Of a stretch of 64,000 bases of DNA, positions 44,874-61,730 are shown piece after piece. Source of the DNA: an uncultured Planctomycetota bacterium (GTDB lineage Bacteria; Planctomycetota; B143-G9). The translations under genes and the position numbers were made by a program. The notes beneath the pieces are model-generated. The model worked only from the letters and a program-made list of their open reading frames with translations. It ran no database searches and had not been told where the DNA came from. The stretch covers positions 40,308-104,307 of the forward strand of contig CAZNBY010000003.1 in the NCBI GenBank assembly GCA_964571525.1. The letters are read 5' to 3'. Numbering within the stretch: the first letter of the stretch is position 1; each line of letters opens with the position of its first letter.

Positions 44874-46148
44874 ATGAGACGGTATCCTGTTTCTGTGTTA
44901 TTGCTGCTGACAATAGTGCTGCTGCTGATTGCATCGGCATCATCTACTGTGTCGGCACGAATTAAGTTGGCCACATTGCCTGTTCGTGAACGGGTCGAGA
45001 TCCAACTCGACAACGACAATACAACCCTTGTTGAAGAGGAGCGTATTGTCCCGCTGTTAAAGTGGTCTGCCCAGACAGGCAACAACTTCATTGACTTCAG
45101 TTGGTCGAACACAAGCATTGACAAGTCGTCCATTCTGTTTCGTCCCATCGCGATACGCAATGGCGAGCAGTTTGACGCGATCAAGAAGGTCAAGCTCGAC
45201 CCATTTGGTGAGGTTGAGGAAGTATCGGTTATCAATGTCGCCTTCCCCCCTAACGAAAACGCCCTTGTGTGGGAGGTTTTCGCGGCACGCGCGTGCGCCG
45301 TTAAGGTGCGCGTAAGCTATCTTATATCGAACCTGAGCCGTTCATTCAGCTATCGTGCGCTCGCCAATAAGGATGAAACTACACTAACGCTTTCGAAATA
45401 TCTGCAGATACGGAATTACTCAGGCGAAAGCTTCAGTGGGGCAGGGGTTTGGGCAGGATTTGGCACTGCATTCAACAAGGTAGTTGATAATTCTACGGAT
45501 ATCAAAGTGCTCATGCACAACTTCAAAGATGTGAAGATAAACAAGACCTTCACCTTCGACTGGTACACAAACGGCAGATTGAATGCAGATAAGCCCTTTG
45601 CATCGAAGATACTGATGCACTATAACCTTAAGAACACCACCGCTGGTGGTATGGGTCTATTCCCAATGCAGCCGGGAAAGGTTCGTATCTTTGTTGACGA
45701 TGGTCGCAATGGTGAAGCGTTTCTCGGCGAGGATATTGCTCTTCTTACCCCAATTGATGGCGAGATGGACCTTTACCTCGGAGAATCGCGCGATATCGTT
45801 TGCACAAGAACGATAGACAGCAATGTGCGTGAAGTGAAGCGCGGTAACCTTTTCAACCAGAACATTGTAATTAAGTATGAGATCGAGAACTTCCGCGACA
45901 AGCCCGCGACACTTCGCATACTCGAACAGGTTAACAGGCTCTGTGCAGAACTCGCTGGTGTTGGCAATCGCGACACTGAGTGGGAGAAAGGCTCACAGAC
46001 ATCATCAGAGCTTAAGATTGATATGGAAAAGGGGATCACGATGCCAATGCTGCTCGTTGACCTTCCTGCCGCACCTGCTGATAAGACCAAGAAGGTCGAA
46101 AAAGTAGTCGTCAAGTTCCACATAACCCTAAAGAACTGCTGGAATTGA
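44874..46148 (+). CDS. Secreted DUF4140/DUF4139-like protein, divergent paralog 1 of 4
   Basis: Signal peptide. The N-terminal block ATLPVRERVEIQLDNDNTTLVEEERIV...FIDFSWSNTSIDKSSILFRP resembles the start of the TIGR02231/DUF4140 family. It is collinear with the next three genes. Confidence 0.55.
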   Translation: MRRYPVSVLLLLTIVLLLIASASSTVSARIKLATLPVRERVEIQLDNDNTTLVEEERIVPLLKWSAQTGNNFIDFSWSNTSIDKSSILFRPIAIRNGEQFDAIKKVKLDPFGEVEEVSVINVAFPPNENALVWEVFAARACAVKVRVSYLISNLSRSFSYRALANKDETTLTLSKYLQIRNYSGESFSGAGVWAGFGTAFNKVVDNSTDIKVLMHNFKDVKINKTFTFDWYTNGRLNADKPFASKILMHYNLKNTTAGGMGLFPMQPGKVRIFVDDGRNGEAFLGEDIALLTPIDGEMDLYLGESRDIVCTRTIDSNVREVKRGNLFNQNIVIKYEIENFRDKPATLRILEQVNRLCAELAGVGNRDTEWEKGSQTSSELKIDMEKGITMPMLLVDLPAAPADKTKKVEKVVVKFHITLKNCWN

Positions 46149-46157
46149 GAGTGAGCC

Positions 46158-47546
46158 ATGAGAAGGAGTTCTATAGTTAAAATCGCGCTTGTGGTGCTTG
46201 CCATAATAACGGCAACTGCCGTTGTTGGACGGGCAGAGAACATTGATGTTGTTACTTTGCCTGTTCGTGAAGGTGTGCAGTTGACGATCTACAACAACGA
46301 GGACCTTACACTTGTGCGTGAGACGAGGAGTATTACCCTAAAGCGTGGTGCTAATCGTCTTCAGTTCTCTTGGACAAACACCTTGATTGACCCTTCGAGC
46401 GTCGAGTTCCGCACTGTTGACCATAAAGAAGATGTTACGCTTGTTGACACCCTCTTTTTGGGTTCGAAGCCGCAGCATCTTATCTGGAATATCGAATCAA
46501 AATACGAGGGGCAGGTTAAGGTCGAAGTTTGTTATTTCACAAGCGGAATATCTTGGGCTATGGACTACACCGCGATTGCAAACCCCGATGAGACCACGCT
46601 AAATCTGCGCGGTTATGTTTCTGTGACCAACAATTCGGGGGAGGACTACGAAAATGCAGACATTCGGTTGATCGTAGGGAACATTAACCTGATGGAGAAA
46701 ATCGCAGAGTTGGCTCGCCGTCAGGGATTGCAGATTCCCAGGGTGCTTCTGAATTACAACGATCTTAAGCTTAAGGCAACACGCGATGCTTTTGAACGCG
46801 CAAAATCCACGCCTCCACCGGGAACGAGTTTTCCCGCAAGATCAGGTCTGCCTGACGCTTCTGCTCAAAGACCAAAGGAGATAATCAAGGAAGGTGTGAG
46901 TGAGTATTTCATGTTCTCCATTGAAGGAAGCGAGACTGTTACTAACAGGTACACGAAGCGTATGCAAGCCGTGAAAGCTGATAGTGTCAGTTTCGACACC
47001 GTTTACCGCATGCGCAACCACCAGTACGGCCCGCGCCCAGTTCGCTTCTTCATATTCAGCAATGACACCGAGCACAAATTAGGCGATAGTCCGCTTCCAA
47101 ACGGGATGATTCGTACATTCCGAGATAACGGTCGTGACGGCCTTGCCTTTTTAGGTGCGGAGTACCTTGAATATGTCCCCGTTCGCTCGAAAATCGAGCT
47201 TAATCTGGGTGCCGACGACCTTGTTGTGTTTGAGTCGCTTGTGTCTGATTTGAAAAGGTCTGATTTCGGGCATGACATATACGATTCTGTTGTGTCGTGG
47301 GATGAACTGACAACATGGATTTCGATGGTCAAAAACTACCGCTCAAAGCCCATCACATTTGAACTTCGACAGCAATGGAGCGGTGACACTGAATATAAGT
47401 CAGACCTGTCTGCGTCCCTTTTCGATTACATGACGGTCGAGACCATCTTTACCGTCGAGTCACGCGATGTAAAAAAACTCCACTCCTATGTTCTGCAGCA
47501 CCTTGGAAAGGCTTCCAAGCAGAACAGAGTGTTGCTAACGAAGTGA
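46158..47546 (+). CDS. Secreted DUF4140/DUF4139-like protein, paralog 2
   Basis: VVTLPVREGVQLTIYNNEDLTLVRETRSITLKRGANRLQFSWTNTLIDPSSVEFR. About 60-70% identical to paralogs 3 and 4 along its full length. Confidence 0.6.
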   Translation: MRRSSIVKIALVVLAIITATAVVGRAENIDVVTLPVREGVQLTIYNNEDLTLVRETRSITLKRGANRLQFSWTNTLIDPSSVEFRTVDHKEDVTLVDTLFLGSKPQHLIWNIESKYEGQVKVEVCYFTSGISWAMDYTAIANPDETTLNLRGYVSVTNNSGEDYENADIRLIVGNINLMEKIAELARRQGLQIPRVLLNYNDLKLKATRDAFERAKSTPPPGTSFPARSGLPDASAQRPKEIIKEGVSEYFMFSIEGSETVTNRYTKRMQAVKADSVSFDTVYRMRNHQYGPRPVRFFIFSNDTEHKLGDSPLPNGMIRTFRDNGRDGLAFLGAEYLEYVPVRSKIELNLGADDLVVFESLVSDLKRSDFGHDIYDSVVSWDELTTWISMVKNYRSKPITFELRQQWSGDTEYKSDLSASLFDYMTVETIFTVESRDVKKLHSYVLQHLGKASKQNRVLLTK

Positions 47547-47553
47547 GGTAATT

Positions 47554-48912
47554 ATGAAAAAGAAACTGCCTCTGCTGTTATTGCTTTCGGCGATTCTTAT
47601 GCAGATAAGTTATATCGCCGTCGCAGAGAACATTGACCTTGTAACCCTCCCCACGCGGGACGGCGTCCAACTCACTATCTACAACTCTGAAGATCTTACT
47701 CTTGTCCGCGAGACGCGAAGTATCACCCTTAAAAAGGGTGAAAACCGCCTTCAGTTCTCGTGGGCAAATACCCTAATTGACCCCACAAGCGTTGATTTCC
47801 GTCCGGTCGAGCATAAGGAGGATATCACCCTTGTTGATGCGGTCTTCCCCGGCCAGAAGCCCCAACACCTTATCTGGAATATAGACTCTAAATACGAAGG
47901 GCAGGTCAAGGTCGAGGTGAGCTACTTCACAAGTGGTCTTTCGTGGGCAATGGATTACACAGCTATTGCCAATCCCGAAGAGACAAATCTAAAACTCAAA
48001 GGCTATGTCTCGGTGCTTAACCGTTCTGGCGAGGAGTATGAGAATGCCGAGATTCGCCTTATTGTCGGCAATGTGAACCTTGTTGAAAAGATCGCTGAGC
48101 TTGCAAAACGCAAAGGCATTGAGCCTCCCGCTGCTGGCAGAGACTACGATCGTATTAAGAAAGAGGCCGCCCGTGAGATGTTCGACAAGGCCACCCCTCG
48201 AACCGCTGCTGCTCCGGGTGCACCCGCTAAGGCTCCTGAAATCGTTAAAGAGGGCTTAAGCGAGTACTTCATGTTCACAATCGAGGGTTTGCAGACCGTA
48301 CCAAACTTATGGGTAAAGCGAATTCAGGCTGTTAACGCTGATTCTGTGAAATTCGACATAGTCTATCGTATGCGTGACTTTCAGTATGGTCCTCGGCCAG
48401 TTCGTTTTTACATATTTGAAAACGACACCGAACGCGGTCTTGGTGATAGCCCTCTGCCTGATGGGATGCTCCGAGTCTTTCGCGATAACGGTCGCGATGG
48501 TCTTGCTTTCTACGCTTCTCAGAGCCTTAACTATGTGCCGATTCGAGCTAAGATCGAGGCTAACCTTGGCACAGACGATCTTGTTGTCTTTGAGATTATC
48601 AAGTCAGGTCTCGAACGCAAAGAGTTTAGCTTTGCGATGAGCGGGATGCGGGAATATGTGAATGGATGGGATGAGCACGGAGTCTGGTCGGGCACTGTGC
48701 GCAATTATCGCGCTAAGCCGATCAAGTTCGAGCTTCGTCAGATATGGGACGGCGATGTGGAATACAGCGCCGATATGCCATCCACATTGTTCGATTACCG
48801 CACTGTCGAAACAATCTTCACGGTCGAACCCCGCTCGAAAAAGACCCTGCTTTCTAAGACTTTGATACATATGGGGAACAACTCCAAGCAGTCGCGCATA
48901 CTCCTTAAGTGA
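47554..48912 (+). CDS. Secreted DUF4140/DUF4139-like protein, paralog 3
   Basis: LVTLPTRDGVQLTIYNSEDLTLVRETRSITLKKGENRLQFSWANTLIDPTSVDFR. Spacing to the neighbouring genes is 7 bp. Confidence 0.6.
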   Translation: MKKKLPLLLLLSAILMQISYIAVAENIDLVTLPTRDGVQLTIYNSEDLTLVRETRSITLKKGENRLQFSWANTLIDPTSVDFRPVEHKEDITLVDAVFPGQKPQHLIWNIDSKYEGQVKVEVSYFTSGLSWAMDYTAIANPEETNLKLKGYVSVLNRSGEEYENAEIRLIVGNVNLVEKIAELAKRKGIEPPAAGRDYDRIKKEAAREMFDKATPRTAAAPGAPAKAPEIVKEGLSEYFMFTIEGLQTVPNLWVKRIQAVNADSVKFDIVYRMRDFQYGPRPVRFYIFENDTERGLGDSPLPDGMLRVFRDNGRDGLAFYASQSLNYVPIRAKIEANLGTDDLVVFEIIKSGLERKEFSFAMSGMREYVNGWDEHGVWSGTVRNYRAKPIKFELRQIWDGDVEYSADMPSTLFDYRTVETIFTVEPRSKKTLLSKTLIHMGNNSKQSRILLK

Positions 48913-48918
48913 GGCTTT

Positions 48919-50289
48919 ATGACCAACAGATTAACATTGCTTGTTATGCTTCTGATTTTCGCAGCCCAGATCGGCTCGGTTGCTTGTGCCGGTAACATAG
49001 ACCTTGTCACACTCCCTAGCCGTGACGGCGTTCAGTTGACGATCTATAATTCTGAGGACATCACTCTTGTCAAAGAGACCCGTTCGCTTGCTTTCAAAAG
49101 GGGCACCAACTCACTTCAGTTCTCATGGGCAAACACCCTGATTGATCCTTCCAGCGTCGAGTTTAGACCAATCGAACACAAGGACGAAATCACCCTTGTT
49201 GACACAGTGTTTCCCGGCCTAAAGCCCCAGCACTTGGTGTGGAACATTGACTCGAAATTCGAGGGTCAGGCACGCGTCGAGGTGAGTTACTTCACAAGCG
49301 GCCTTTCGTGGGCGATGGATTACACCGCAATAACAAATCCCGACGAGACTCTTCTATCGTTAAATGGCTTTGTTTCTGTAACGAATGGATCCGGCGAGAA
49401 CTACGAAAACGCTCAGATTCGGCTTGTTGTAGGCAACATCAACCTTGTCGAGAAGATAAGCGATCTTGCGAAGCGCAAAGGGCTTGAGGTAACGACACTT
49501 ACACCGCCTGAGTATGATGAACTTCGCCACAACGCGCTTTGGGACGCAATGGATGGCAACAACGCACCCTCCGAAGACGCTTTTGCTGAAGGCGCAGCGC
49601 AGATAGAGGAAAAACAGGTGATCAAGGAAGGTCTAAGCGAGTATTTCATATTCACGATAGAGGGGCGTGAGACCGTACCGCATAGCTGGACAAAACGGAT
49701 GGGTGCCGTCAATGCTGCAAATGTGCCTTTCGAAATCGTTTATCGTATGCGGGATTACCAATACGGACCCCGCCCTGTGCGCTTCTATGTCTGGAACAAT
49801 GACACTGAGCATAAGTTGGGAGAAAGCCCGCTTCCTGACGGAATGATAAGTGTCTTCCGCGATAATGGCAGAGACGGCCTTGCCTTTTGCGCTCGGCAGT
49901 ATATTAACTATGTGCCCATACGAGCAGATATAGAGATCAACCTTGGTGCAGATGATCTTGTTGTTTACAAGACGGTGAAGGCCGAGTTATCGCGTGGCGA
50001 ATTTAGCTTCCGGTCAAGTGGAAGGCAGGAATATGTTGATGGTTGGAAGGAACGAACTCTGTGGAAAGATGTTGTCAGCAACTACCGCTCAAAGCCGATT
50101 AAATTCGAGCTTAGGCGCGTCTGGCAGGGCGATGTCGAATACTCATCTGATACAAAGGGTGGATTGTTTGACTATCAAACCGTCGAGACCGTCTTTTCCA
50201 TAGAAGGCAACACGAAAAAGAACATTAATGCCGAAGTAACGGCTTTGCAGGGAAGACTGGCAAAGCAGGCGAGAGTGGTGGTGAAATAA
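48919..50289 (+). CDS. Secreted DUF4140/DUF4139-like protein, paralog 4
   Basis: LVTLPSRDGVQLTIYNSEDITLVKETRSLAFKRGTNSLQFSWANTLIDPSSVEFR. Last gene of the array. Confidence 0.6.
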   Translation: MTNRLTLLVMLLIFAAQIGSVACAGNIDLVTLPSRDGVQLTIYNSEDITLVKETRSLAFKRGTNSLQFSWANTLIDPSSVEFRPIEHKDEITLVDTVFPGLKPQHLVWNIDSKFEGQARVEVSYFTSGLSWAMDYTAITNPDETLLSLNGFVSVTNGSGENYENAQIRLVVGNINLVEKISDLAKRKGLEVTTLTPPEYDELRHNALWDAMDGNNAPSEDAFAEGAAQIEEKQVIKEGLSEYFIFTIEGRETVPHSWTKRMGAVNAANVPFEIVYRMRDYQYGPRPVRFYVWNNDTEHKLGESPLPDGMISVFRDNGRDGLAFCARQYINYVPIRADIEINLGADDLVVYKTVKAELSRGEFSFRSSGRQEYVDGWKERTLWKDVVSNYRSKPIKFELRRVWQGDVEYSSDTKGGLFDYQTVETVFSIEGNTKKNINAEVTALQGRLAKQARVVVK

Positions 50290-50317
50290 TCTCTACGGCA
50301 TAATAACGCTGAGCATG

Positions 50318-50353
50318 AAAAAAACGCCCGTCGAAAAGCGGGCGTTTTTTTCT
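50318..50353. terminator. Bidirectional intrinsic terminator
   Basis: aaaaaaa-cgcccg-tcgaaaag-cgggcg-ttttttt. A GC stem flanked by an A-run and a T-run serves both the paralog array on the plus strand and the ferredoxin on the minus strand. Confidence 0.6.
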
Positions 50354-50412
50354 AAAACTCGAACACCGGATTACCGCAGGGTATCGGAAGACGATACACC
50401 TGAGACATTCGG

Positions 50413-50583
50413 GTTATTCGGGCGCAATTGCGCTCACGGGGCAGGCATCAACGCAAGAGCCGCAATCTACACAAGCATCGGGGTCAATGATGTAGTGCGG
50501 GCTGCCTTCGCTGATCGCTCCAACAGGGCAGCTTTCGATGCAAGAACCGCATGCAACGCATGCATCGCTGATCTTGTGAGCCA
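50413..50583 (-). CDS. 2x[4Fe-4S] ferredoxin of 56 aa, absent from the ORF track because it is shorter than 60 aa
   Basis: Hand translation of the reverse complement gives MAHKISDACVACGSCIESCPVGAISEGSPHYIIDPDACVDCGSCVDACPVSAIAPE*. It has two CxxCxxCxxxCP clusters. Confidence 0.8.
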
Positions 50584-50692
50584 TGGGACCTCCAATCCGA
50601 ATGTGGTTGAATTTAGTATATGGAAAATTGCTTGTCTGTCAAACAAATATTGCAGTATTTTAGACGGGTTCAAACCCGATCGGACAATAGAA

Positions 50693-50720
50693 AAGGGTCG
50701 CTGATTGCTCAGCGACCCTT
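50693..50720 (-). terminator. Intrinsic terminator immediately after the Rhs gene
   Basis: Perfect 12-bp inverted repeat aagggtcgctga/tcagcgaccctt with loop ttgc. On the minus-strand transcript TTTTCTATTG follows. Confidence 0.55.
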
Positions 50721-50738: not shown

Positions 50739-53700
50739 TTACCAAGGTTTTGTTCGGTAGTATTCGTATTGTCCGTAACCCCATGCTGCGACATCAAGTA
50801 TGTCATTCGCAAGCAGAGCCCACCCGACGATCGGCACCATTCGCGATGCTCCGCGAAATACGGTTCGAGTGACTGCAGGGGCTGCTTTTAACCCCATTCG
50901 AAGTGCCTGTCTTCCATACTTCTTAACACCCCACTCTGCGGCCATCTCGACACCCTTTTCTATGCTCTCGTCAACCGCCGCATCAACGCAATCGCTTGTG
51001 ACATCAACAACATCATCCATCCATATTTGCTGTGTTGTTGTATCGCGAGGCGCAGGAATGCCGATATCAGCGGTCTGACTCGCATAGCCTATGTCGTAGT
51101 TCGGGTCGAAGAACGGGCATTCGTATTCCTCATCTTCATCTTCATGACCGGTGGGGTCAAAGAAACGCATTGGATTGCAGCGAGCATACGCATAAGGATT
51201 AAACCCGTTGCGGTACAATGATGGATCAGGTGTAAGAAAACGACCGATCTGCGGATGATACCAGCGATGGCGCATGAAATATAGGCCAGCCTCGAAATCG
51301 TATTCTGAACCAGCGAAAAGGAACGGATTCGGGATGCCCTTGTCGTCCATCGCCAATATGTTGCCGTATGCATCGTACACATAGCTCGATGTTACGCCAC
51401 CGCCGTTAAGCCCGACGACATTGCGGAAACCATCTTGAGCATAGCGATAAACAACACCGCCGTAAATCATAACCAGCGGGCGGTTAGCTTCATCAGCATG
51501 TGCGAATTCAGCTAACTTACTTGTTGAAGTGTCATACATGCCAATCAGCCGTTCCTGATGATCATAGATGTAATAAGTGCGTACGCCGTTTATCTCGCGG
51601 CAGGTTCTTAGTCCAAGCGGGCTGTAGTAGTAGTTGATAGTCTTTTCGATGTCGCTTTCTACTGTCTTGCCGTTGTAGATCACAACTTGAGTTAGATTGC
51701 CTGCGGCATCATAGGCATATGCGCGACGCCTTAAACCATCAGCGGATGGAGACTCAAGCGTCATGCGATTCGATGAATCATAGTAGTAACTGCATGTGTC
51801 GTCGTTTGTCAGCTTGTTGCCAGAAAACTGCGCCATTGGCCGCATGTGGGTTCCTGAAATGTTGTTATTGCCCGTGTAGCCGTAAGACTCATTCGGGCCT
51901 GGGAATCCGATGGGATGAGTTACGCTCTTTATTCTGCCTGCACCGTCAAGTGCAACTGTATGCCCACCGTAGGAATCAGTGTAGTAAACGCAACCAAGAT
52001 GATTCCATGTGTAGGTATAACTTCCCGCAAATGAATTGACAGAGCTGATGAATCCAGCAGATGTGCGAGTGTAGCTTACATTCGCGTCGCCGTAATTCAG
52101 AGTAGTAATCTGCCCCTTTGCGTTGCGGGATATGTTGACGAGATTCGAACCGCCATCGCTTAGAGACGATAGGCGCATATCAAAGCGCGAAAAACCGAAT
52201 CTGAAACCGGTGGTTCCAACATTTATACGCTGATACAGCACCCGTTCAGACGCCGTCTCAAGAGTTATGCCTGTGTTGTAGAAATGCTGCCCATTTGGGT
52301 CACTGTAACCGATGTAGTTGATGTTGTTGTTCGCATCATACCCATAGTTCAGCGTGACATTCTGGCTGTTTGCGGATGTCATCTTGCCGGCATCGTTGTA
52401 ATCAAAGTTGATGTTGTATGAGCCTGTCGGACCTGATATCTTCTTCTCGGTGCATTTACCGTTGTCATCGTAGGTAAACTCAAATTGGTTATTGCCAGCT
52501 CCATTGTAAATAGTCGGCAGGCCATTTGGTTTAAAGGTCGAAGTGTAATCGCCCTCGGGACCAGATACGCTTGTGCAACGGTAGAACTTATCATACTGGA
52601 AAGATAGTCCGCCACTCGGCTTCGTGACTCCGGTGATTATGCACTCAGGTGTATAACCACCGATTATTGCGCTGCGATGCAAGTTGGTTACAGCAAAGCT
52701 GAATGTGGCGGCTGGTGTGGTAATCGAGGTGATGTTTCCGGCTGCATTATATGTGAAAGTTGCCGTCTCGTCACCACCTGTCTTTGATATTACTCGTCCA
52801 GAATCGTTGTATGTGTAGGTGTAGTTGATTCCGTTTCGATTAACAGAGATAATACGACCCAAAGCGTCATATTGCGCACTTATCTCTTGATTTCCATCCC
52901 GATATTGCCCGATGGGAACTCCACCATCGTAGGTAAATGCCATGTTGATTGAGCCAGAGTAAGTATTGATCACTCTGCCTTCATCATCATAGCCGTAGTA
53001 CTTTGTCTCATTGATTGGATTAGTTACCTTTGTAAGCTTTCCATCCTCATCGAACTCTGACACCCAGTACTCACCATTGATCTTGTTGATAATAGTGTGC
53101 AAGGTGCCAGACGGATTGCGATAGTAGTACTCGACCCGCTTTCCGTTTGGATAAGTTACATTCTGGATCTTACCGGTCGGGTAGTACTCCTTAAGCAGCT
53201 TCTTGCCTCCCTGTTCAACTTCCATTGTAAGCCCTTGTTTTGTGAATGTAACCATCGGCTGGTTCTCACCGTCGAACTTCGCCTGAACCTTATCTACCTT
53301 TGGCGCGAGTTGAGGCCATGTGACCTCGTCGGCGAACTCGTTGATAATGCCGCTAAGCCCATCTTCTGTTATCGTCTGTGTGTATTCACCGTTGTACTGG
53401 ATTTCGGTGACGAACTGCTTGTCGTCGTATGTGTAGGTGACTCTATGCCCGACCGGATCGGTCTTGCTCGCAAGGAGTCCATGATAGTTGTATGTGTAGG
53501 AGCTTATAGCGTTGCCGGGGGTGGCAATGTTCGCAAGAAAACCATCTGAAAGCGTCAGAGTAGAGGTGCGGTCGAGGTTGTCTTTTATTACTACACTGCC
53601 ACCGGTATAATTGAAGTCCCAGAATCCAACCTTGTCAATCGCAATGCGCGTTACCTTCGGGTTGTTCTCGTCTGAAGTGTCATACGAATATGTGGTCTTC

Positions 53701-56399
53701 GCGCCACTTGGCAGCGTTACATTCTGAAGCAATCCGTTCTCATCAAACTCATGCTTTTCACCGCCCGGGGATTCGATGAAGAACTTACCACCCATTTTAG
53801 TAAGCGACATGTTTTCTGAGCCTTGCGCAGTCCAGTCGCCAGTCAATCTCTGCCAGATACGAATGCTCGACATACGCCCAATACCGCTGATGTACATATT
53901 GTCGCCAGGTCCGCATGCGATATTGCCAGCCTCAAAGAACTGCAGACTCTTAACCGCTAAGCGATCGGTGTTCAATGCCGTCTTTGTGCCGCCGTTTAAC
54001 AGCGTAACCTTGGAGTTGACATCAACCTTGAAGAGCTTGAACATTTCAAGCAGGAAAATCTCTCCTGCGGAATTAAAAGCGATATCAACAAGAGGGGGGA
54101 TGTTTGCTTCAGAAAGTTCAAGATCCTTTTCAACCTCTGGGTTCTTTGCTCCATTTCCGCCGATAACCTCAGACTGTGTATCGCCGTTTCCGTCAATGTA
54201 ACCGCGGACGATCTCACCTGTATTCCAATCGTGGTTTTGCACATAGAAGAAACCAAGGCGGTCAACACCAAGAGCCCGAGCATTTGATGTTGGATAGACA
54301 AGCTTGGTCTCACTCTCATCCGCAAGTATTCGCCATAAGCCTTCGGAACCTAACACATATAAATCGCCATTCGGCGCAAAGGCAATGTCCCATGTGCCCG
54401 CAACAGTAGCAACATGCACCCAAGAGCCATCTTTGAACTTGTCAATCGAATCACCTGTGCAGTAATAAGGCTCTTTTGTTGATGGATTGACTGCGAATGG
54501 ATCGCCATGTGGCATGGTTAGAGGGCGGGTTGCGATGGTTGTAACATCAGTGCCTGCAATAGGCTCAGCAGGATACTCGTCGCCCACGGGTGGCTCGCCC
54601 ATGGGATCCTTCATGCGGTATATGGTTACTGTTGCAGGTGATCCCCAGCTATCGCGGTAACTGTGCGCTATATACAGATATTCGCCGTCGCTGTCTGTGC
54701 GGATTGTGCGGTTCCATTCCTCGAATGCGTTACGACCGATTTCTGGAGCATCCGGTTGGAGCAGATAGAAGTAGTTTTCTGCATAAAGCTGGTGTTCAGC
54801 TTTGAACATAACTGGTGGGCCTTCGCGTCTTCCAGCCAGCATAGCAGCATCGCGATCTTGCGAGAAATACAGACGCTCAAGACCCGCGATATACCAGCCC
54901 TTGCCAAACGGGCTGTCATTGAGGTTGATGAGCCCCATATAGCGCCTGTGGTTGATATTGTATGTCGGCGCGGGATCATCGCCATTGCGGTCTATCTTGC
55001 CAGCTTTTTGCGATGGCGGGGTTGGAGGAACAAACATACATGGTGCGGTTCTTGCGATTGCAAGGGGAATAGAGGGCTGAGGATAGACAAAGCTGCCTGT
55101 AGCCGAGTTTGAATATCTGCCTGCAAAATACTGACCATATGCGATGTTGTAAGGGTAGGGGCCTGATGGCAGTACAACCTTATTGCCTTTGTCATCTTCC
55201 TTTGTCACATCCACGACAACGCGAGATATTGTTGCATCTGATGAGTCTTCAACTATTGCCTCGAAGACCTGATTGAAGCCACCAAAGCGAATGCGCCCGA
55301 ACATGGCGTCTGCCTTATCGGCTGGGCGCCCCTTTGCTGTAACCTCGATCATCCTCTTTGCACGCACGGTATCGGATTCATAAAGCAGCGATATAGTATT
55401 CTCGACACCGAACGCGAATATGGATGGCAGGTCAACACCGACCATCAGGTTGCCATTCGTGACATCTACATGGGGTTCGCCCGACATGAAGTTGTCGTTC
55501 GAAAGCGATACTTCGTAAAGGTCCCTTTCTGAGCCAATATCTGAAATCACAGGTAAAGCGGCAAGGAAAGTAGAGAAGTGGTTAGTGGTGAACTGTATCC
55601 ATAGGCCATCGGCTGTTACCGTTCCGACGCCATGGTCTTCCCATTCGCCAGTATTAGTGTTGTAATAACCGATTGGGACAGATGTACCAACTGGCAAGCC
55701 GATGGAGTTCGTCAGTTTGATAGTTATAAGGCCACCGACCGCGCTTGTCGCGTCAAGTACTATACCGCCCACCACCGCGCAATTAGGTGGAATTTGGCCG
55801 GGAAGCGCAAAGTCATAGGTCTCTTCTGGAATGTAATATGCAGTTACCTCTGTTCCGTTTGGGAACACAGAGGATGGTATGATGATAGATGCTTTTGTCG
55901 AGACATTAATTGTGCCGCCGGTTGCGCCGACAGTCTGCTGTGCGCCGTCTCCGGGTATCAGATAGATATTGCCCATGTGTACCTGAGCACCGAGCGAAAC
56001 TGGTACGAATTGCGTCTCGGGCACATGCCCGTCAATGTGCATCGTAACCTTCAAATTGCCCGGAAACACTGGAAAATTGAAGCGGCCGTTGATATCCGTC
56101 GTGCCCATTAAAACGCCGTTTCCATCGAACAAAGAGACATTGCTCAACGGGTTCCCGCTGCCATACGACACGACCTTGCCAGAAATAAAGCCTCTGCTTC
56201 CAAGCGTCGGTGTAGGAGTGGGCGTAGGTGTCGCAGTTGGGGAAGGTGTAACTGTAGGAGAAGGGGATGGAGTTAATGTGCCGGATACAGACGCTGTTGG
56301 AGATGCCGAGGTTGTTGTCCCACCGCCACCACCGCCGCCGCACGCGACGGCGATATGGAGCATTAACAGCACTGATGCGATAAATGCGAAGCGCTTCAT
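50739..56399 (-). CDS. Rhs/YD-repeat polymorphic-toxin protein with signal peptide, poly-Gly and Pro/Thr-rich linker, and a C-terminal variable domain (1886 aa)
   Basis: N-terminus MKRFAFIASVLLMLHIAVACGGGGGGG followed by a TPSPTATPTPTPTPT linker. A carboxypeptidase-regulatory-like beta domain and many YD repeats (YxYDxxG) follow. The Rhs core ends YDAYGNIL...RHRWYHPQIGRFLTPDPSLYRNGFNPYAYARCNPMRFFDPTGH. A C-terminal tail of about 135 aa with no recognisable motif follows. Confidence 0.85.
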   Translation of the reverse strand: MKRFAFIASVLLMLHIAVACGGGGGGGTTTSASPTASVSGTLTPSPSPTVTPSPTATPTPTPTPTLGSRGFISGKVVSYGSGNPLSNVSLFDGNGVLMGTTDINGRFNFPVFPGNLKVTMHIDGHVPETQFVPVSLGAQVHMGNIYLIPGDGAQQTVGATGGTINVSTKASIIIPSSVFPNGTEVTAYYIPEETYDFALPGQIPPNCAVVGGIVLDATSAVGGLITIKLTNSIGLPVGTSVPIGYYNTNTGEWEDHGVGTVTADGLWIQFTTNHFSTFLAALPVISDIGSERDLYEVSLSNDNFMSGEPHVDVTNGNLMVGVDLPSIFAFGVENTISLLYESDTVRAKRMIEVTAKGRPADKADAMFGRIRFGGFNQVFEAIVEDSSDATISRVVVDVTKEDDKGNKVVLPSGPYPYNIAYGQYFAGRYSNSATGSFVYPQPSIPLAIARTAPCMFVPPTPPSQKAGKIDRNGDDPAPTYNINHRRYMGLINLNDSPFGKGWYIAGLERLYFSQDRDAAMLAGRREGPPVMFKAEHQLYAENYFYLLQPDAPEIGRNAFEEWNRTIRTDSDGEYLYIAHSYRDSWGSPATVTIYRMKDPMGEPPVGDEYPAEPIAGTDVTTIATRPLTMPHGDPFAVNPSTKEPYYCTGDSIDKFKDGSWVHVATVAGTWDIAFAPNGDLYVLGSEGLWRILADESETKLVYPTSNARALGVDRLGFFYVQNHDWNTGEIVRGYIDGNGDTQSEVIGGNGAKNPEVEKDLELSEANIPPLVDIAFNSAGEIFLLEMFKLFKVDVNSKVTLLNGGTKTALNTDRLAVKSLQFFEAGNIACGPGDNMYISGIGRMSSIRIWQRLTGDWTAQGSENMSLTKMGGKFFIESPGGEKHEFDENGLLQNVTLPSGAKTTYSYDTSDENNPKVTRIAIDKVGFWDFNYTGGSVVIKDNLDRTSTLTLSDGFLANIATPGNAISSYTYNYHGLLASKTDPVGHRVTYTYDDKQFVTEIQYNGEYTQTITEDGLSGIINEFADEVTWPQLAPKVDKVQAKFDGENQPMVTFTKQGLTMEVEQGGKKLLKEYYPTGKIQNVTYPNGKRVEYYYRNPSGTLHTIINKINGEYWVSEFDEDGKLTKVTNPINETKYYGYDDEGRVINTYSGSINMAFTYDGGVPIGQYRDGNQEISAQYDALGRIISVNRNGINYTYTYNDSGRVISKTGGDETATFTYNAAGNITSITTPAATFSFAVTNLHRSAIIGGYTPECIITGVTKPSGGLSFQYDKFYRCTSVSGPEGDYTSTFKPNGLPTIYNGAGNNQFEFTYDDNGKCTEKKISGPTGSYNINFDYNDAGKMTSANSQNVTLNYGYDANNNINYIGYSDPNGQHFYNTGITLETASERVLYQRINVGTTGFRFGFSRFDMRLSSLSDGGSNLVNISRNAKGQITTLNYGDANVSYTRTSAGFISSVNSFAGSYTYTWNHLGCVYYTDSYGGHTVALDGAGRIKSVTHPIGFPGPNESYGYTGNNNISGTHMRPMAQFSGNKLTNDDTCSYYYDSSNRMTLESPSADGLRRRAYAYDAAGNLTQVVIYNGKTVESDIEKTINYYYSPLGLRTCREINGVRTYYIYDHQERLIGMYDTSTSKLAEFAHADEANRPLVMIYGGVVYRYAQDGFRNVVGLNGGGVTSSYVYDAYGNILAMDDKGIPNPFLFAGSEYDFEAGLYFMRHRWYHPQIGRFLTPDPSLYRNGFNPYAYARCNPMRFFDPTGHEDEDEEYECPFFDPNYDIGYASQTADIGIPAPRDTTTQQIWMDDVVDVTSDCVDAAVDESIEKGVEMAAEWGVKKYGRQALRMGLKAAPAVTRTVFRGASRMVPIVGWALLANDILDVAAWGYGQYEYYRTKPW

Positions 56400-56631
56400 A
56401 GAACTCTCCTGGGTACTTTATTGTTAGGGATTATGAAATTGCGTGGTAAGAACAAAGGCAAGCTGCAGCCATGCAGGCTGATACGGCGAAACAAGCACTT
56501 GATAACGGTTGGATAAGTCAGACTTCCCCCAATCAAGCGATGTATCTCATTGTGTCTGGATCTGCAATTATTATACGAATGCAGAAAATTAGTCAAGTGC
56601 GCTTCAGTTCAAGCGAGAAAAAAGGCACGAT

Positions 56632-59600
56632 TTACTTCTCTTGGATCTCAAGCTGGCGCCACAGATAAGATAGCGTATAAGAAAGTGCTTTTGGTGAATT
56701 GCACAGCACTAAGCGTCCGCGCGGGTCAGTGCCCATGAATACTGCTCCGTCATGTGGCTTCCAAAGTGCATCAAGAATCGGTGATGCCTTCTTGATTGTC
56801 TCGATGATGCTGTTGTTTAATCCTGTGCCAGCGATTCGAATTGGCACGAACACTACTGTGGTGCCACAGTCCCAAATGTTCTCGCTGCTCCGCTCGATCA
56901 GTTGGCGCTCAGTTATCGTAAGCACATACTCGTCATATTCGTCTGCGAGCCACACAAACCAAGGGTATTCGGCAACAAGAATATCCATAAGCCCGGATAG
57001 GCTGATCCAACCGGTCAGCGATGCTCGTAATCTGTCTGGCAGTGTGACACGAACCGCTGCCTTTGCTAATTGCGGGTCAACAGAAAATGATGTCTGCGAT
57101 TGTGTCGAAACCACGCGTACCAGTTCGCCAAGTGTTACCACACTTTCTGGAACATAGATAAGTTCGTACGGGATTGGGGCAAGAATCCCCGTTGTCAGCC
57201 ATGGTTTAGGCATGGCAGGTCGAGGTGCAGAGGCAGCATCTATCAACTTTTTAAGCCGTATTTGCCCCGACATGGGCATATTGGCGACTACATTCATATC
57301 ACGCTTTGCGATAGAAAAGCCGTGCTTTCCATCCGCAGGTGCCATAAACTCGCGCAAAAACACAATAGCCTGTTCCACCTGATCATCTGTAACAGCACCT
57401 GGGTATGAGTACACATGAACATCCGCGCTTTCTTCTGAAAGGAATCCATAACCCCGAGATAGCTGCACAGAAAACTGGCTCTTTACTTTTACAACACCTG
57501 CTCCGTATCTCCTTTCTAACGCAATAGGATCGCGATAGAACGCAGATAGCTCGTAAGCAAGGTAACTTAAAATCGAGCTTCTTGACCCGACCCAGTTCTG
57601 GGGTGCTATTCGCTTCTCAAAGGCTCCATCCTTCTTATATGTGTCGAGCAATTCCTTTGTCACCAGTATATCCATTTCGCAGACTGTAGAGACAAGCGAA
57701 ACTATCTCGACGATGTCAGTGGGCTCTGATGTTTGAACTAAAAGCGGAGCCTCGATACCACGCCTTTCACGCGGAACTACTCGAACTATGAATCGAGATC
57801 TCGATATGCCAGAAAATCCGTCATCCGCAGAAGCCTCGAACTCATGGCTGCCCAAAGGCAGATTTTCTATAACGAAATAGGGCAGAAACCTGAAACTTGC
57901 CTTTGACGATTGCCCTCCCGTTCGTCTTAGTGCATAGCGCAATGAATCGCCATCTCCATCAACCGTCGAAGACAAATCCACAATAAGCATATCACCGAGC
58001 ACGATTTCATAAGGAGCTTCGACCCTAACCTCAGGTGGGCGATTTGGTTCTTTTACCCTAACCTCAACCAAATCTGAAGAGCTTTGTTGACCATTACTTA
58101 CCTCAAGCTCGAATGAGTAGTTGCCAACCTTTAAAGGCACCAAATTTACCTTCGATTCAGTCTGCTTTTCAATGTCCACGATAGCAGGGCCGCCTACCTG
58201 CTTCCAAAGATAGGTAAGCGATCCGCCTCCAGCTTGTCTGCTGCCAGAACCATCCAGCGTCAGCGTTGCTCCCACCTCGCAATAGAAGTCTGCCCCCGCA
58301 TTCGCAACTGGAGCAGGGAAGGGGGATGTAACCTCGAATTTCGCTCTTGCTGGCGCGCTTCGTATCCCAGCAACGATTGCAACAACCTCGAACTCATATA
58401 TCCCCGGCTCTTTGGGGAAGAAGGTTACGGTCTCCTGCGTGGCGCGCGAGGATGAAAGCTGTGCAACCGGCCCCGAGAGCTGACGCCAGATATACTCAGC
58501 ACCCGCATTTTTTCCTTCTGTCGCTGCGGCAAGTGTTACCTTGCGGTTTACTGATGCTTTTGACGGCGCGAAACACGATACAACTGGCACTCCCTGCGTA
58601 GGTCTCACTATCACTGTCGCATACACCGGTTGCATGGCAACTGATTTGACTGTCGCGTTTACACAGAACTCGAAAACACCGCTGAATGGAAATGTCACAT
58701 CAAGGGTTGGCGCGGTTATCTCTGTCATTAGTGTGACGCCACGATGTTGTGTCCACTTATATACCCCGCCTTCAATCGGATTAACAACCTTCAGCGTTAC
58801 AGTCGAATTTATTCCCGTCGTTATGACCTGAGGCTCGACAGCAATCAGCTTTGCATCGCGGTTGACGCAAATAACTTCTGTCTCGCTTACCGTCTTGGCC
58901 TGCCCGTCAGATACTGTGAGCTTAAATCGTGCAGTGCCCTTGTTTTCGGCCCGCAGAGAGACATCTGTTTTTGAAAAGTCAGGTTCACCTTTCCAAAGTT
59001 TATCCCCGTTTACATGCTCCCACTCGCCCGTTATTTTGTCGCCATCAAGGTCGAATGATAATGACCCTTGCAGCGTGAACGACTCTCCCTGGCGTATGAC
59101 AATCTTCGATGGTGCTGCCGGTGTAGGCGGCATGTTTCCCTGTTTAACTTGTACTTCGATAACTGCCGTATTCGTCAGAGCGCCCGACTCATCAACCTTC
59201 AACAAGAATGTGTATATGCCTGAATAACGGGGCACAAACCAGCATACAATACCGCCACCCTCAAGCTCAACTGGTGGGCCATCAACCTGAAACCACTGAA
59301 ACGATAGCACCCCGCCCTGCGACGGGGATGACGCTGCGCCGCTAAGGGTTACCTTGCTATGAGCGTAAGCAGGTTTTGGCGAATAGACCGCGCGGACTGT
59401 AGGTTTTGCCAAGGCCGCCAATACGCTTAGTTCTTGAATTGGAGCATCTGTTCGTGCGATTCCGTCTGATACATACATCCGTATTACATACGAGCCTTCT
59501 GTTTGCGGCTTAAATACAAAGCGGGGGCCTATTGCCTCTGTCTTAGCTCCAGTTGCGATGCTCTCAGCGCTCCAGTGAAAGGTCAAAGGGTCATCGTCGG

Positions 59601-61422
59601 GATCGAACGCAGCTATCGGCTCGAATACTGCTTCATCGCCCACGCTGCATCGCTTTGTGCCCTGCATCCGCGCAGATGGGGGACTATTGCGCCGAAAAAC
59701 AGGTATTTCGATAGTCTTGTCTGCAAATCCGCGGTTGTTCTCTGCCTTTGCGTAAAAACGGTAAGTGCCGGGTGATGATGCGGTGAATTCGGCTCTGCCG
59801 GCATCGGTGAAGCGTATGCCGCAAAACGGTCCTGAGACGAACCTCAGCGTAAGCTTCAACGCTTCCTGCGTATCGTCGAACGAGCCTGTTATGTCAACAA
59901 TGATGTCATCACCTACAACGCTACCCTTTGTGTCAACTCGAAGCATAGGTTTTCCGTCAGACGGCATAACCTCAAGCTGAGTCTGTGTAGGTTCGGATAT
60001 CTCGTCGCCGTCGCTGACTATTAAATTGAACAGGTACATCCCCGGTGTGAAGAGTCGGACTGTGCGTTCGCCCAATCTTGGAATTGATGCAGCGGCAAGT
60101 GGATCGGGGGATTCGAGCAGTGCCCAGTAAGCTGAAAGCGGTTCACCTTCGGGATCGGTTGAAGTTGATGAATCAAGCATGAAGGGCTCGCCGACCGATA
60201 CTCGTTTGGGTAGAGTGGCGACTGCTACTGGTTTGTTGTTTTGATTTACTGCGCGAAATCTGATCGAATTAGTAGAAACCGCACCATAGATGTCGGTGAT
60301 CGTCAATGATACCGTGTATTCACCAGCAGTATTGGGTTTTATGAAAAATGTGTCCTCGTCGCTTTTTTCGGTCGTAACTCCTGTCTGAGGAGTTACTTTC
60401 CAAAGATACGAAATCCTATCTCCGTCTGGGTCGTCTGATGTTGTCGCAGATAAAGACACCCCTCTTCCAACTGTTGTCAGAGCGGTTCCTGTTATGCGCA
60501 CTCGCGGTGCATTGTTGACTTCTGGGTTTCTTGCAGTCAAGCTGTATGTAAGAAATGCATGTGTCGCTCCGTTATCAATATATGCCCGTATCTTAACCTC
60601 GCCGTCGAACGCGCGAAATACAAGTTTGGATGTTGTGAGCGACTTGATACCATAGATTTTGCCGGCTACAGGTTCCCACCACCAGCGGAGAATAGGCTCG
60701 GCATCCGAGTCGTATGATGCGGATGAGTCAAGAATGTAGCTGCCATCTTCGTAGCGAGCTCTTATCTTTATGGTCGGCGGCATTATAGAAAGAGGCATCT
60801 TTAGCCCGCGCTTTCTTGGCGAGAGCCTCTCTTTAAGTGGAACGGGTGGGGTGCGTGATATCTTTACGCCGTGTTCTCCAATCGTTGCGTAAAGGTCGGC
60901 GTCAATCTCGGCTAACTCACCTTTCGATTCGACCTCAACACCTCCATTAGGTGAATATACTCCTCCTGTCTTTCCCTCGCGAAAGGCTTCGAACCTGTTT
61001 TTCGAAGAGATGGTAACTCCCTCAATCTGAACCTCTGCACGCGATCCAATTGGAGAAGGAATGAACAGCATTTTGCCGCTAAGAAGCTCGAACTTGTAGC
61101 AAAGCAGATGGGGTTTTTGTTCGATTCCTCTTGCTGACACAAATCTTACTCTTGATTCAGCATCAAGTACTAAAAGGCTCGCGTCATCGAATCGAAGCAC
61201 AAGCAGGGCGTTTGATGATGTGAAGAATGTCGTATCAGCGCTATACCTTACTCCCTTTTCTAACGCGATCTTCTGCATTGCCTGTTCAGCAAAAGCCTCT
61301 TGATAAAGTGCTGCGACGGTGCAAAAGCCCTCGACTTCGCAATTGGCGCATTGCCGATGAATCGAAAGCACCACAAGGAGCGTAAAAAGCACAGTTAAAG
61401 CAGCTATCGCGATTCTGCGCAT
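56632..61422 (-). CDS. Large secreted surface protein with multiple PKD/Ig-like beta-sandwich repeats and a distinct C-terminal domain of about 450 aa (1596 aa)
   Basis: Signal peptide MRRIAIAALTVLFTLLVVLSI. Repeated modules of about 90-100 aa show PKD-like periodicity (DPDGD, DPDDD, YxWxxxxGP motifs). The C-terminal 450 aa or so is not repeat-like. Confidence 0.7.
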   Translation of the reverse strand: MRRIAIAALTVLFTLLVVLSIHRQCANCEVEGFCTVAALYQEAFAEQAMQKIALEKGVRYSADTTFFTSSNALLVLRFDDASLLVLDAESRVRFVSARGIEQKPHLLCYKFELLSGKMLFIPSPIGSRAEVQIEGVTISSKNRFEAFREGKTGGVYSPNGGVEVESKGELAEIDADLYATIGEHGVKISRTPPVPLKERLSPRKRGLKMPLSIMPPTIKIRARYEDGSYILDSSASYDSDAEPILRWWWEPVAGKIYGIKSLTTSKLVFRAFDGEVKIRAYIDNGATHAFLTYSLTARNPEVNNAPRVRITGTALTTVGRGVSLSATTSDDPDGDRISYLWKVTPQTGVTTEKSDEDTFFIKPNTAGEYTVSLTITDIYGAVSTNSIRFRAVNQNNKPVAVATLPKRVSVGEPFMLDSSTSTDPEGEPLSAYWALLESPDPLAAASIPRLGERTVRLFTPGMYLFNLIVSDGDEISEPTQTQLEVMPSDGKPMLRVDTKGSVVGDDIIVDITGSFDDTQEALKLTLRFVSGPFCGIRFTDAGRAEFTASSPGTYRFYAKAENNRGFADKTIEIPVFRRNSPPSARMQGTKRCSVGDEAVFEPIAAFDPDDDPLTFHWSAESIATGAKTEAIGPRFVFKPQTEGSYVIRMYVSDGIARTDAPIQELSVLAALAKPTVRAVYSPKPAYAHSKVTLSGAASSPSQGGVLSFQWFQVDGPPVELEGGGIVCWFVPRYSGIYTFLLKVDESGALTNTAVIEVQVKQGNMPPTPAAPSKIVIRQGESFTLQGSLSFDLDGDKITGEWEHVNGDKLWKGEPDFSKTDVSLRAENKGTARFKLTVSDGQAKTVSETEVICVNRDAKLIAVEPQVITTGINSTVTLKVVNPIEGGVYKWTQHRGVTLMTEITAPTLDVTFPFSGVFEFCVNATVKSVAMQPVYATVIVRPTQGVPVVSCFAPSKASVNRKVTLAAATEGKNAGAEYIWRQLSGPVAQLSSSRATQETVTFFPKEPGIYEFEVVAIVAGIRSAPARAKFEVTSPFPAPVANAGADFYCEVGATLTLDGSGSRQAGGGSLTYLWKQVGGPAIVDIEKQTESKVNLVPLKVGNYSFELEVSNGQQSSSDLVEVRVKEPNRPPEVRVEAPYEIVLGDMLIVDLSSTVDGDGDSLRYALRRTGGQSSKASFRFLPYFVIENLPLGSHEFEASADDGFSGISRSRFIVRVVPRERRGIEAPLLVQTSEPTDIVEIVSLVSTVCEMDILVTKELLDTYKKDGAFEKRIAPQNWVGSRSSILSYLAYELSAFYRDPIALERRYGAGVVKVKSQFSVQLSRGYGFLSEESADVHVYSYPGAVTDDQVEQAIVFLREFMAPADGKHGFSIAKRDMNVVANMPMSGQIRLKKLIDAASAPRPAMPKPWLTTGILAPIPYELIYVPESVVTLGELVRVVSTQSQTSFSVDPQLAKAAVRVTLPDRLRASLTGWISLSGLMDILVAEYPWFVWLADEYDEYVLTITERQLIERSSENIWDCGTTVVFVPIRIAGTGLNNSIIETIKKASPILDALWKPHDGAVFMGTDPRGRLVLCNSPKALSYTLSYLWRQLEIQEK

Positions 61423-61577
61423 AGATACATTTTAGACGCTTTGCACACCATTACACCTAATATTGGACATTTGTGCGCTACTCCATGCCTCATCGCAGAC
61501 ATGGTGCCATTACTCTTCGCCAAAGTAATGCGCGAAAGCATTGACAAAACCGTCGTATCAAGTAAAATATGCACATC

Positions 61578-61653
61578 GGGCATATAGCTCAGTCGGCAGA
61601 GCGCTTCGCTCACATCGAAGAGGTCACTGGTTCGAGTCCAGTTATGCCCACCA
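61578..61653 (+). tRNA. tRNA-Val, anticodon CAC
   Basis: GGGCATATAGCTCAGTCGGCAGAGCGCTTCGCTCACATCGAAGAGGTCACTGGTTCGAGTCCAGTTATGCCCACCA. Anticodon loop is CTCACAT. CCA is encoded. Confidence 0.85.
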
Positions 61654-61668
61654 TGATTCGTCAGCTCA

Positions 61669-61695
61669 GGCGATCCGCAAGCGGGTCGCCTTTTT
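61669..61695 (+). terminator. Intrinsic terminator after tRNA-Val(CAC)
   Basis: ggcgatccgc-aa-gcgggtcgcc (one mismatch) followed by TTTTT. Confidence 0.5.
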
Positions 61696-61730
61696 GTTGG
61701 ATACTGAAATCTACCGTTGTTTCCGTAAAA

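Follow-up and report, generated by a model that had tools for sequence, protein, structure and literature searches.

A putative teneurin-like Rhs/YD-shell lipoprotein of an uncultured planctomycete, with a conserved C-terminal tail and no downstream immunity gene

Bacterial teneurin-like proteins (TLPs), such as BiTLP of Bacillus inaquosorum (PDB 9pt5/9ifo), have the domain order TTR, TIP, FN-plug (256 aa in BiTLP), NHL (327 aa) and YD shell (884 aa) (Raoelijaona et al., Nat Commun 2026, PMC13018210). The TIP domain is present in 96% of TLPs, and the TLPs of Gram-negative bacteria are SPII lipoproteins. They have an R/D/D autoprotease and keep a C-terminal domain (CTD) of ~15 kDa inside the shell, their CTDs are "highly polymorphic", and an immunity gene follows "almost all" TLP genes (PMC13018210). 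The CTD of BiTLP (92 aa, hydrophobic, one predicted transmembrane segment) permeabilises E. coli when exported, and TLPs have been reported from six phyla, Planctomycetota not among them (PMC13018210). Here we describe an Rhs/YD-shell gene from an uncultured Planctomycetota bacterium (GenBank assembly GCA_964571525.1). It is a complete open reading frame (ORF) for 1886 aa, found from the ORF list and its translation at 50739..56399 on the minus strand (-) of a 64,000-nucleotide stretch of contig CAZNBY010000003.1, which we call the window.

The common understanding of Rhs and teneurin-like proteins is that they carry polymorphic toxins and are paired with immunity genes. Tse5 (RhsP1) of Pseudomonas aeruginosa has the immunity protein Tsi5, and in the WapA-type YD-repeat toxins of Gram-positive bacteria the C-terminus is a polymorphic nuclease, with a WapI immunity gene behind it. 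The cargo of Tse5, Tse5-CT, is pore-forming (PMC9637101, PMC10684867). Toxins aimed at hosts or non-kin often come without immunity genes (PMC3482391). A conserved, unpaired cargo, as found here, is an exception to the general picture. We tentatively favour a reading in which the window protein belongs to a lineage-restricted family of teneurin-like Rhs/YD-shell lipoproteins, carrying an encapsulated, cleaved and conserved effector that is probably membrane-active and aimed at non-kin; we give it slightly less than an even chance of being right, and weigh it below against three others.

Architecture of the putative Rhs lipoprotein

The N-terminus of the protein, MKRFAFIASVLLMLHIAVAC20, has Lys and Arg near its start, a hydrophobic core and the sequence A-V-A-C, and fits the PROSITE-type lipobox pattern. 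This predicted signal peptide with its lipobox (aa 1–20, ending ...IAVAC20; 56340..56399, (-)) was read from the sequence, and the pattern A-[LV]-A-C-G-G-G is kept in two full-length orthologues, one in a Candidatus Brocadiia metagenome-assembled genome (L004; JBAZOJ010000079) and one database protein (P0003). It is followed by a poly-Gly tract (G7) and a Pro/Thr-rich linker (aa 21–66; 56202..56339, (-)) that is conserved in the same two orthologues. Over residues 27–161 there is partial similarity to NF052345, the family of the anammox S-layer glycoprotein Kustd1514, in its stalk region, at a score far under the cut-off (E=1.3e-9). A carboxypeptidase-regulatory-like/transthyretin-like (TTR-like) domain was found by Pfam at aa 72–142 (55974..56186, (-)), matching PF13620 with E=3.8e-7 (30.8 bits, slightly under the cut-off of 32.3) and PF13715 with E=6.5e-4.

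The region preceding the putative propeller is conserved and is a candidate plug (aa 291–540; 54780..55529, (-)). It holds the motif GEPHVDVTNGNLMVGVDLP, which resembles an Rhs shell start, and residues 297–331 show 54% three-way identity, among the most conserved 35-aa stretches of the protein. A six-bladed NHL-type beta-propeller then probably precedes the shell (aa ~545–865; 53805..54767, (-)), as suggested by blade motifs and a structural model. Six conserved G-x-h-Y-h strand motifs occur at aa 572, 642, 678, 716, 779 and 833. An AlphaFold (AF2) model of residues 285–880 was built on two sequences; it had a mean pLDDT of 40 and was moderately confident for aa ~565–746 only. Its top Foldseek matches were NHL propellers (PknD, Pizza6, TRIM2) and teneurins 3 and 4, with TM-scores of at most 0.46, and the region had no Pfam NHL match and no match to PDB sequences.

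The YD-repeat shell occupies aa ~870–1752 (883 aa; 51144..53792, (-)) and ends in the Rhs-associated core at aa 1675–1752. The repeats matched RHS_repeat (PF05593, E=5.8e-38, in 5–7 stretches) and TIGR01643 (YD_repeat_2x, E=2.2e-22), and the core matched TIGR03696 with 77.9 bits against a cut-off of 32.5. Precomputed matches to PF25023 (TEN_YD-shell) are on record for the window protein and for P0006, a related fragment. The Rhs core aligned to the ends of BiTLP (9pt5/9ifo) and of Rhs proteins of known structure. The Pfam and NCBIfam scans revealed no PAAR, prePAAR or VgrG-linked N-terminus, and no nearby genes of a type VI secretion system (T6SS). An assignment as a T6SS Rhs effector was rejected, there being no PAAR, VgrG or prePAAR element and a signal peptide instead.

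The core ends in NPMRFFDPTGH1752, so that the PxxxxDPxG motif is present. The predicted aspartyl autoprotease residues are R1712, D1725 and D1748, the R(-13)/D/D(+23) spacing is identical in all orthologues, and the predicted P1 residue is His1752, a position held by Met, Lys or Arg in the orthologues. The P1 position of the Rhs core is usually Leu. A preliminary description of the gene, made from this DNA alone, had listed a signal peptide, a Cys, a poly-Gly tract, a Pro/Thr linker, YD repeats and an Rhs core, all of which we found again by reading the lipobox and by Pfam and NCBIfam matches. It had also called the DPTGH ending of the core canonical; the motif is intact, with the refinement that the His stands where Leu is usual.

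Two distant environmental Rhs proteins (P0010 and P0011) end their cores in DPTGT and DPTGR, where P1 is likewise not Leu. Both carry strongly hydrophobic, glycine-zipper-like (transmembrane-like) C-terminal domains. Rhs proteins outside the T6SS group may often carry cargos of this membrane type.

Conservation of the tail and the search for an immunity gene

Behind the core lies a tail of 134 aa (15.0 kDa, pI 4.2), close to the length of about 135 aa first reported. An exhaustive HMMER search with the tail (1.84 billion representatives) gave six matches, of which four were true relatives: P0001, from a near-identical strain; P0002, on a 925-bp contig; P0003, a full-length protein of 1916 aa; and P0006, a C-terminal fragment of 512 aa. 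A word-indexed search of 5.8 billion proteins with the tail and a tail profile as queries returned two fragments, to which the exhaustive search added a full-length orthologue and a further fragment. A scan of 185,579 species genomes (GTDB) returned one locus, L004. A metagenome scan for the tail returned the L004 contig again, and no copy was found in viral contigs. The contig of P0003 turned up no record. When the full-length protein was the query, scores beyond the window protein itself and P0003 (37% identity, 100% coverage) dropped to those of generic Rhs proteins at ~25% identity. With about five relatives of the tail among billions of proteins, the family is tiny, and its lineage appears to be Brocadiia-type Planctomycetota. 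The identical 1886-aa protein is recorded from two further assemblies.

The window protein, L004 and P0003 were colinear from the lipobox to the last residue, and the same tail was present in all four Rhs-linked relatives, including the full-length L004 and P0003 and the fragment P0006. Tail identity to L004 and P0003 was 45% and 36%, compared to 43% and 38% for the whole protein. The last 35 aa (SRMVPIVGWALLANDILDVAAWGYGQYEYYRTKPW) reached 51% three-way identity against a mean of 26%, and ranked in the top five non-overlapping conserved stretches, level with the autoprotease core. There was no break in identity, GC content or composition at the DPxG junction between core and tail, and a recent acquisition of the tail was rejected for want of a GC discontinuity. 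In a sister strain (L003), whose flanks are ~1% divergent, the 5.66-kb Rhs gene has three differences, all of them synonymous. By these alignments the tail is conserved and not polymorphic, contrary to the pattern by which polymorphic toxins are defined. The word polymorphic in the preliminary description is not supported for a tail that recurs in orthologues at 37–43% overall identity.

The gene looks monocistronic. A sigma-70-like promoter site (a TTGACT ... TATAAT region with 10/12 matches; 56567..56596, (-)) sits in the 232-bp gap that separates the Rhs gene from an upstream gene for a PKD-repeat protein, and an AGGAG-like ribosome-binding site stands directly 5′ of the ATG at 56399. An intrinsic terminator (50693..50720, (-)) begins 18 nt past the stop codon; it has a perfect 12-bp stem, then a T-rich tail, with a folding energy of -22.6 kcal/mol and a z of -5.8 against shuffled sequences. 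The next gene encodes an unrelated neighbour, a 56-aa 2x[4Fe-4S] ferredoxin (50414..50584, (-); Fer4 E=4.9e-17), and this has its own promoter-like site (50615-50642; 11/12 matches) and its own terminator (50325-50340). The promoter-like site, the terminator and the independent ferredoxin therefore point to transcription of the Rhs gene alone. The 154-bp gap between the Rhs stop and the ferredoxin contained no plausible ORF. A strong terminator just past the stop, a ferredoxin with a terminator of its own as the next gene, and no adjacent immunity gene had all been proposed before, and all three proposals were borne out.

The same layout recurs elsewhere. At 4/4 independent loci a perfect hairpin of 12–13 bp lies 18–30 nt past the stop, and no co-directional small ORF comes after it. 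In the window the hairpin is followed by the ferredoxin gene, in L004 by three convergent genes for small membrane proteins, in L001 by a patatin gene after 125 bp, and in L006 by ~170 bp of remaining sequence without an ORF. For orphaning to explain this, one and the same loss would have had to occur at all four loci. By comparison of these sequences, the missing downstream immunity gene therefore reads as a trait of the family and not a local loss.

Several candidates for an immunity gene were considered and rejected. Minus-strand ORFs of 105 aa and 50 aa that overlap the 3′ end of the Rhs gene run through the terminator and the ferredoxin in other frames. Seven antisense ORFs of at least 90 aa are spread over the gene; the one that covers the tail (50800-51078, 92 aa) is the shortest of them and is unexceptional. 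A 66-aa ORF upstream of the Rhs start looks like junk sequence and has no conserved counterpart in L004. The L004 genes are three tandem paralogues of ~150 aa (L004 10708–12279, (-)), which directly adjoin the 3′ end of the orthologous Rhs gene and point towards it; they have conserved GRAM/PH-like N- and C-halves around a variable central hydrophobic hairpin, with weak GRAM matches in 2/3. These GRAM-like membrane proteins were also rejected, being convergent and having no homologue in the window. Upstream of the same orthologue, L004 1759–3653 (-) encodes the N-terminal domain of a GmrSD-type restriction endonuclease and an FRG-domain protein, so that the L004 orthologue adjoins defence-type genes, unlike the window copy.

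These observations bear on a reading of the protein as a classical polymorphic Rhs toxin, used in kin competition, with a cognate immunity gene that either the locus has lost or another part of the genome carries. The Rhs architecture, the intact core and the short C-terminal domain of no known type are those of such a toxin; nearly all TLPs and Rhs toxins are paired with immunity genes (PMC13018210), our view is of 64 kb of the genome, and the three tandem small membrane-protein genes adjoin the L004 orthologue. Against this, there is no polymorphism and no sharp break in identity or GC at the DPxG junction, and a tblastn search of the protein against the 64-kb window found the gene itself only, with no other Rhs fragments and no orphan C-terminal or immunity cassettes. 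Four independent losses of a co-directional ORF behind a hairpin are unlikely, and the small L004 genes face the other way. A fixed and unpaired cargo makes kin competition unlikely, and we regard a classical toxin as quite improbable. The preliminary description had offered three options, namely a toxin orphaned from its immunity gene, one aimed at non-kin targets and one protected by an immunity gene located elsewhere; non-kin targets fit best, and the orphaned option finds no support in four loci that all lack a downstream co-directional ORF or in a window that lacks Rhs fragments.

Possible functions of the cargo

The tail has two parts. The first (aa 1753–1800; 51000..51143, (-)) is an acidic linker, predicted to be disordered, with a conserved F-x-DP motif. 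The second (aa 1801–1886; 50742..50999, (-)) is a conserved module of 86 aa with predicted helices in the order helix, invariant Ala-Pro, R-x-V-P and terminal helix, and its C-terminus reads R-x-VP-x4-AL-x3-D-x-LDV-x-A-x2-YGQYEY-x-R-x2-P. The terminal helix has a polar N/K-D-x-x-D face, and 5–6 aromatic residues fall among the last 15. It also contains a borderline hydrophobic segment, MVPIVGWALLANDILDVAA, with a Kyte–Doolittle maximum of 1.4–1.6 in 4/5 members, and a weak compositional match to the membrane-protein family EII-Sor was seen in 3/5 tail members.

Neither the single sequence nor a profile of five members gave a significant match for the tail in Pfam (best E=0.078), PHROG or PDB sequences. 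An AlphaFold model of the tail, built on an alignment of five sequences, gave one Foldseek match, with a meaningless E=9.5. A PEP-CTERM-type sorting signal was rejected on inspection, as the tail lacks the order of motif, transmembrane segment and basic residues. The tail domain is thus new: an 86-aa domain family without known relatives in the libraries searched. The module was also found outside an Rhs context, in region 1–420 of L001 (ENA ERZ18242730, a 925-bp contig at ~1x coverage), where it starts at a GTG; 4 nt before this lies the stop of another frame, which codes for a canonical EF-hand loop (DTDKDGFISEEEF). Either the module there is stand-alone or on a non-Rhs carrier, or, at this coverage, frameshift errors in the assembly account for the arrangement. 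The L001 context suggests that the 86-aa unit is a separable module.

Charge is distributed unevenly along the tail. The first 45 aa have net charges of -12, -10 and -14 in the three full-length orthologues (-12 in the window protein), and the acidic run begins directly past the cleavage site in all members. In the window tail the split is sharp: the first 70 aa carry -18, the remaining part +6. A sub-variant of our favoured reading builds on this: the protein would be a self-inhibited pro-toxin, in which the acidic linker (net -10 to -14) neutralises the amphipathic module until release and processing, making a separate immunity protein unnecessary. It draws on composition alone, though; beyond the first 45 residues the charges of the tail sum to 0 both in the window protein and in L004, so that this part is not strongly cationic, and the acidic run may just keep the cargo unfolded in the shell. 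We think this sub-variant has only a slight chance of being correct.

The lipoprotein-effector reading itself would run as follows. Transcribed alone, from its own promoter to its own terminator, the gene would yield a protein that is exported by the Sec route and lipidated at Cys20, and the Gly/Pro/Thr stalk would hold it at the cell envelope. After the stalk would come the TTR-like domain, the plug-like region, the six-bladed propeller and the ~880-residue YD shell. The Arg/Asp/Asp autoprotease would cut after His1752, leaving a 134-residue, 15-kDa cargo inside the shell, in line with the ~15 kDa average of TLP CTDs (PMC13018210). This cargo would comprise the acidic disordered linker and the 86-residue helical module, the last helix being amphipathic with an aromatic-rich end. 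Once released, the module would act on the membranes of non-kin cells, or else its target would be one not exposed by the producer; we infer such a target because the cargo is conserved and has no partner gene at any locus. The producer may protect itself by encapsulation, and possibly by the acidic linker, instead of by an immunity protein. By analogy with its closest precedents, the BiTLP CTD and Tse5-CT, the module would be a membrane-active effector.

A number of points weigh against this reading. The autoproteolytic cut after His1752 is assumed, and P1 is His, Met, Lys or Arg instead of Leu. The candidate plug (aa 291–540) had no family or sequence match and a pLDDT below 35 in its AF2 model, and the propeller model is of low confidence. 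The tail model had a pLDDT of 46 and no confident fold, showing ~38 disordered residues and then helices. No toxin motif was found in the tail (Pfam, PHROG, PDB), as the preliminary description had also said. The segment MVPIVGWALLANDILDVAA is below the usual transmembrane threshold and has conserved Lys/Asn along with two Asp residues; it could just as well form a helix buried within a soluble bundle. The convergent L004 membrane proteins could be protective, though they have no counterpart in the window, and, with 64 kb of the genome covered, an immunity gene may lie elsewhere in it. Finally, conservation of the cargo across orthologues is expected of a non-antagonistic function.

This last point leads to a non-toxic surface role, in which the protein is a structural, adhesive or signalling component of the envelope of aggregate-forming Brocadiia, and the tail is an internal plug or stabiliser of the shell or a conserved interaction element, in parallel to the fixed C-terminus of metazoan teneurins. 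Such a role agrees with a tail that evolves at the rate of the whole protein and whose end is strongly constrained, with the lack of an immunity gene at four loci, and with a gene that lies in the core chromosome (dnaE, guaA and pyrC, for dihydroorotase, are within 30 kb) and shows less strain-to-strain variation than its flanks. The N-terminal part of the protein is similar to an anammox S-layer glycoprotein stalk, the upstream neighbour is a large PKD-repeat surface protein, and the authors of the TLP study leave room for cell–cell communication (PMC13018210). On the other hand, the autoprotease triad is fully kept in every orthologue, whereas mammalian teneurins lost theirs; a kept cleavage site and a shell-sized cargo are hallmarks of a delivery system; and the 86-aa module of L001, outside the Rhs context, is cassette-like. 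We consider a non-toxic role doubtful on this balance, though it is the chief rival of the effector reading.

On a further proposal, the family would be a TLP that has left the toxin/immunity arms race, with a fixed cargo, no immunity partner and a stable chromosomal unit, and with its autoprotease retained. We judge this unlikely. If true, it would be a prokaryotic intermediate between an encapsulated toxin and a conserved cell-surface receptor, the path taken by metazoan teneurins; cell–cell interaction in aggregate-forming planctomycetes would be possible, and the 86-aa module would be a new signalling or membrane-docking element and not a poison. More broadly, the conserved, unpaired cargo bears on how a producer protects itself (by encapsulation, a pro-region or an unexposed target) and on possible non-antagonistic roles of bacterial YD-shell proteins; the latter question comes from the 2026 TLP study and matters for how teneurins arose. 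The tail defines a new 86-aa domain family, and the protein would extend TLP-like proteins to Planctomycetota, possibly for the first time.

Neighbouring genes and comparison with known systems

The neighbours of the Rhs gene encode a PKD-repeat protein, the ferredoxin, DUF4139 paralogues and histidine kinases. Directly upstream on the same strand (56632-61422, (-)) is the gene for a membrane-anchored protein of 1596 aa with many PKD/K319L-like repeats; its C-terminal ~450 aa have no family match, and it is not conserved beside the L004 orthologue. Convergent on the ferredoxin and Rhs genes are four tandem paralogous genes (44874-50289, (+); 424, 462, 452 and 456 aa), of which 3/4 have weak DUF4139/mucoidy-inhibitor MuiA-like matches and the 424-aa member has no family match. 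Between 40739 and 64000 the window differs from L003 at 225 positions in 23 kb; 82 of these differences lie in 48–50 kb, within the DUF4139/MuiA-like array, and none at 56–58 kb. The region 32108-44800 (-) encodes two giant hybrid sensor kinases (2241 and 1936 aa) with as many as eight PAS domains, and with GAF, CHASE, receiver and Hpt domains besides. At 3642-6515 (-) lies the gene for a TrlF-family AAA-like ATPase of 957 aa, which also matches the model of the anti-phage protein Ppl (NF045780, E=1.7e-183, above the cut-off).

Two gene calls stored for sister contigs deserve comment. A domainless 129-aa ORF (L003 15696–16085; L002 347–736) corresponds to 50315-50704 (+) of the window. This call is probably wrong, because it is antisense to the ferredoxin gene, with its clear Fer4 match, promoter-like site and terminator. 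A tRNA-Val(CAC) gene (61578-61653) lies under the 5′ end of an ORF at 61569-62564 (+), which was called as 331 aa in L003 and whose N-terminus (...EEVTGSSPV...) is the tRNA read as protein; in the window this ORF has an in-frame stop at codon 187, which is Gly in L003.

Among the described systems, TLPs are the closest. The window protein shares with them a Sec/SPII-type lipoprotein N-terminus, a TTR-like domain, an Rhs core with R/D/D autoprotease residues, a cargo of ~15 kDa and the absence of T6SS markers. Its region of ~250 aa, putative propeller of ~320 aa and shell of ~880 aa compare with 256, 327 and 884 aa in BiTLP, and R1712/D1725/D1748 with R2103/D2116/D2140 (PMC13018210); 9pt5_A and 9ifo_A were among the best PDB matches (E ~3e-21, query residues 1279–1751). 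It differs from TLPs in that its plug and propeller regions have no sequence match to the N-terminal domains of BiTLP or to Pfam NHL, and the evidence for the propeller fold comes from a low-confidence model. It also differs in having a conserved CTD with no immunity gene at 4/4 loci, compared to the polymorphic, immunity-paired CTDs of TLPs. We call the protein TLP-like because shell, signal type, TTR-like domain and domain sizes agree; the propeller is suggestive.

With Tse5 the window protein shares an Rhs shell and, as predicted here, a small helical cargo, non-enzymatic and in part hydrophobic, that is set free by autoproteolysis. The ends of the Rhs cores align (8cp6_B, E=1.7e-16). Tse5, however, is delivered by a T6SS (PAAR/VgrG-linked), whereas the window protein has a lipoprotein signal, and the PDB sequence search detected no similarity between the cargos. 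The likeness to WapA-type toxins would lie in Sec-dependent export and attachment to the cell surface with no dedicated injection machine; unlike theirs, the window tail is conserved, non-enzymatic in appearance and unpaired. Relative to polymorphic toxin systems in general (Zhang et al. 2012), the family shows no cassette replacement at the C-terminus, no downstream co-directional immunity gene, no recognisable toxin domain and, in the 64-kb window, no orphan cassettes. Metazoan teneurins have the same order of TTR, plug, NHL propeller and YD shell, plug and propeller being putative in the window protein. Their C-terminal region is fixed within the family, as it is here, and teneurins 3 and 4 were among the Foldseek matches of the propeller model. 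The C-terminal regions have no sequence relationship, and in teneurins the aspartyl autoprotease is lost and the C-terminus exits the shell (PMC13018210), whereas the catalytic triad of the window protein is intact.

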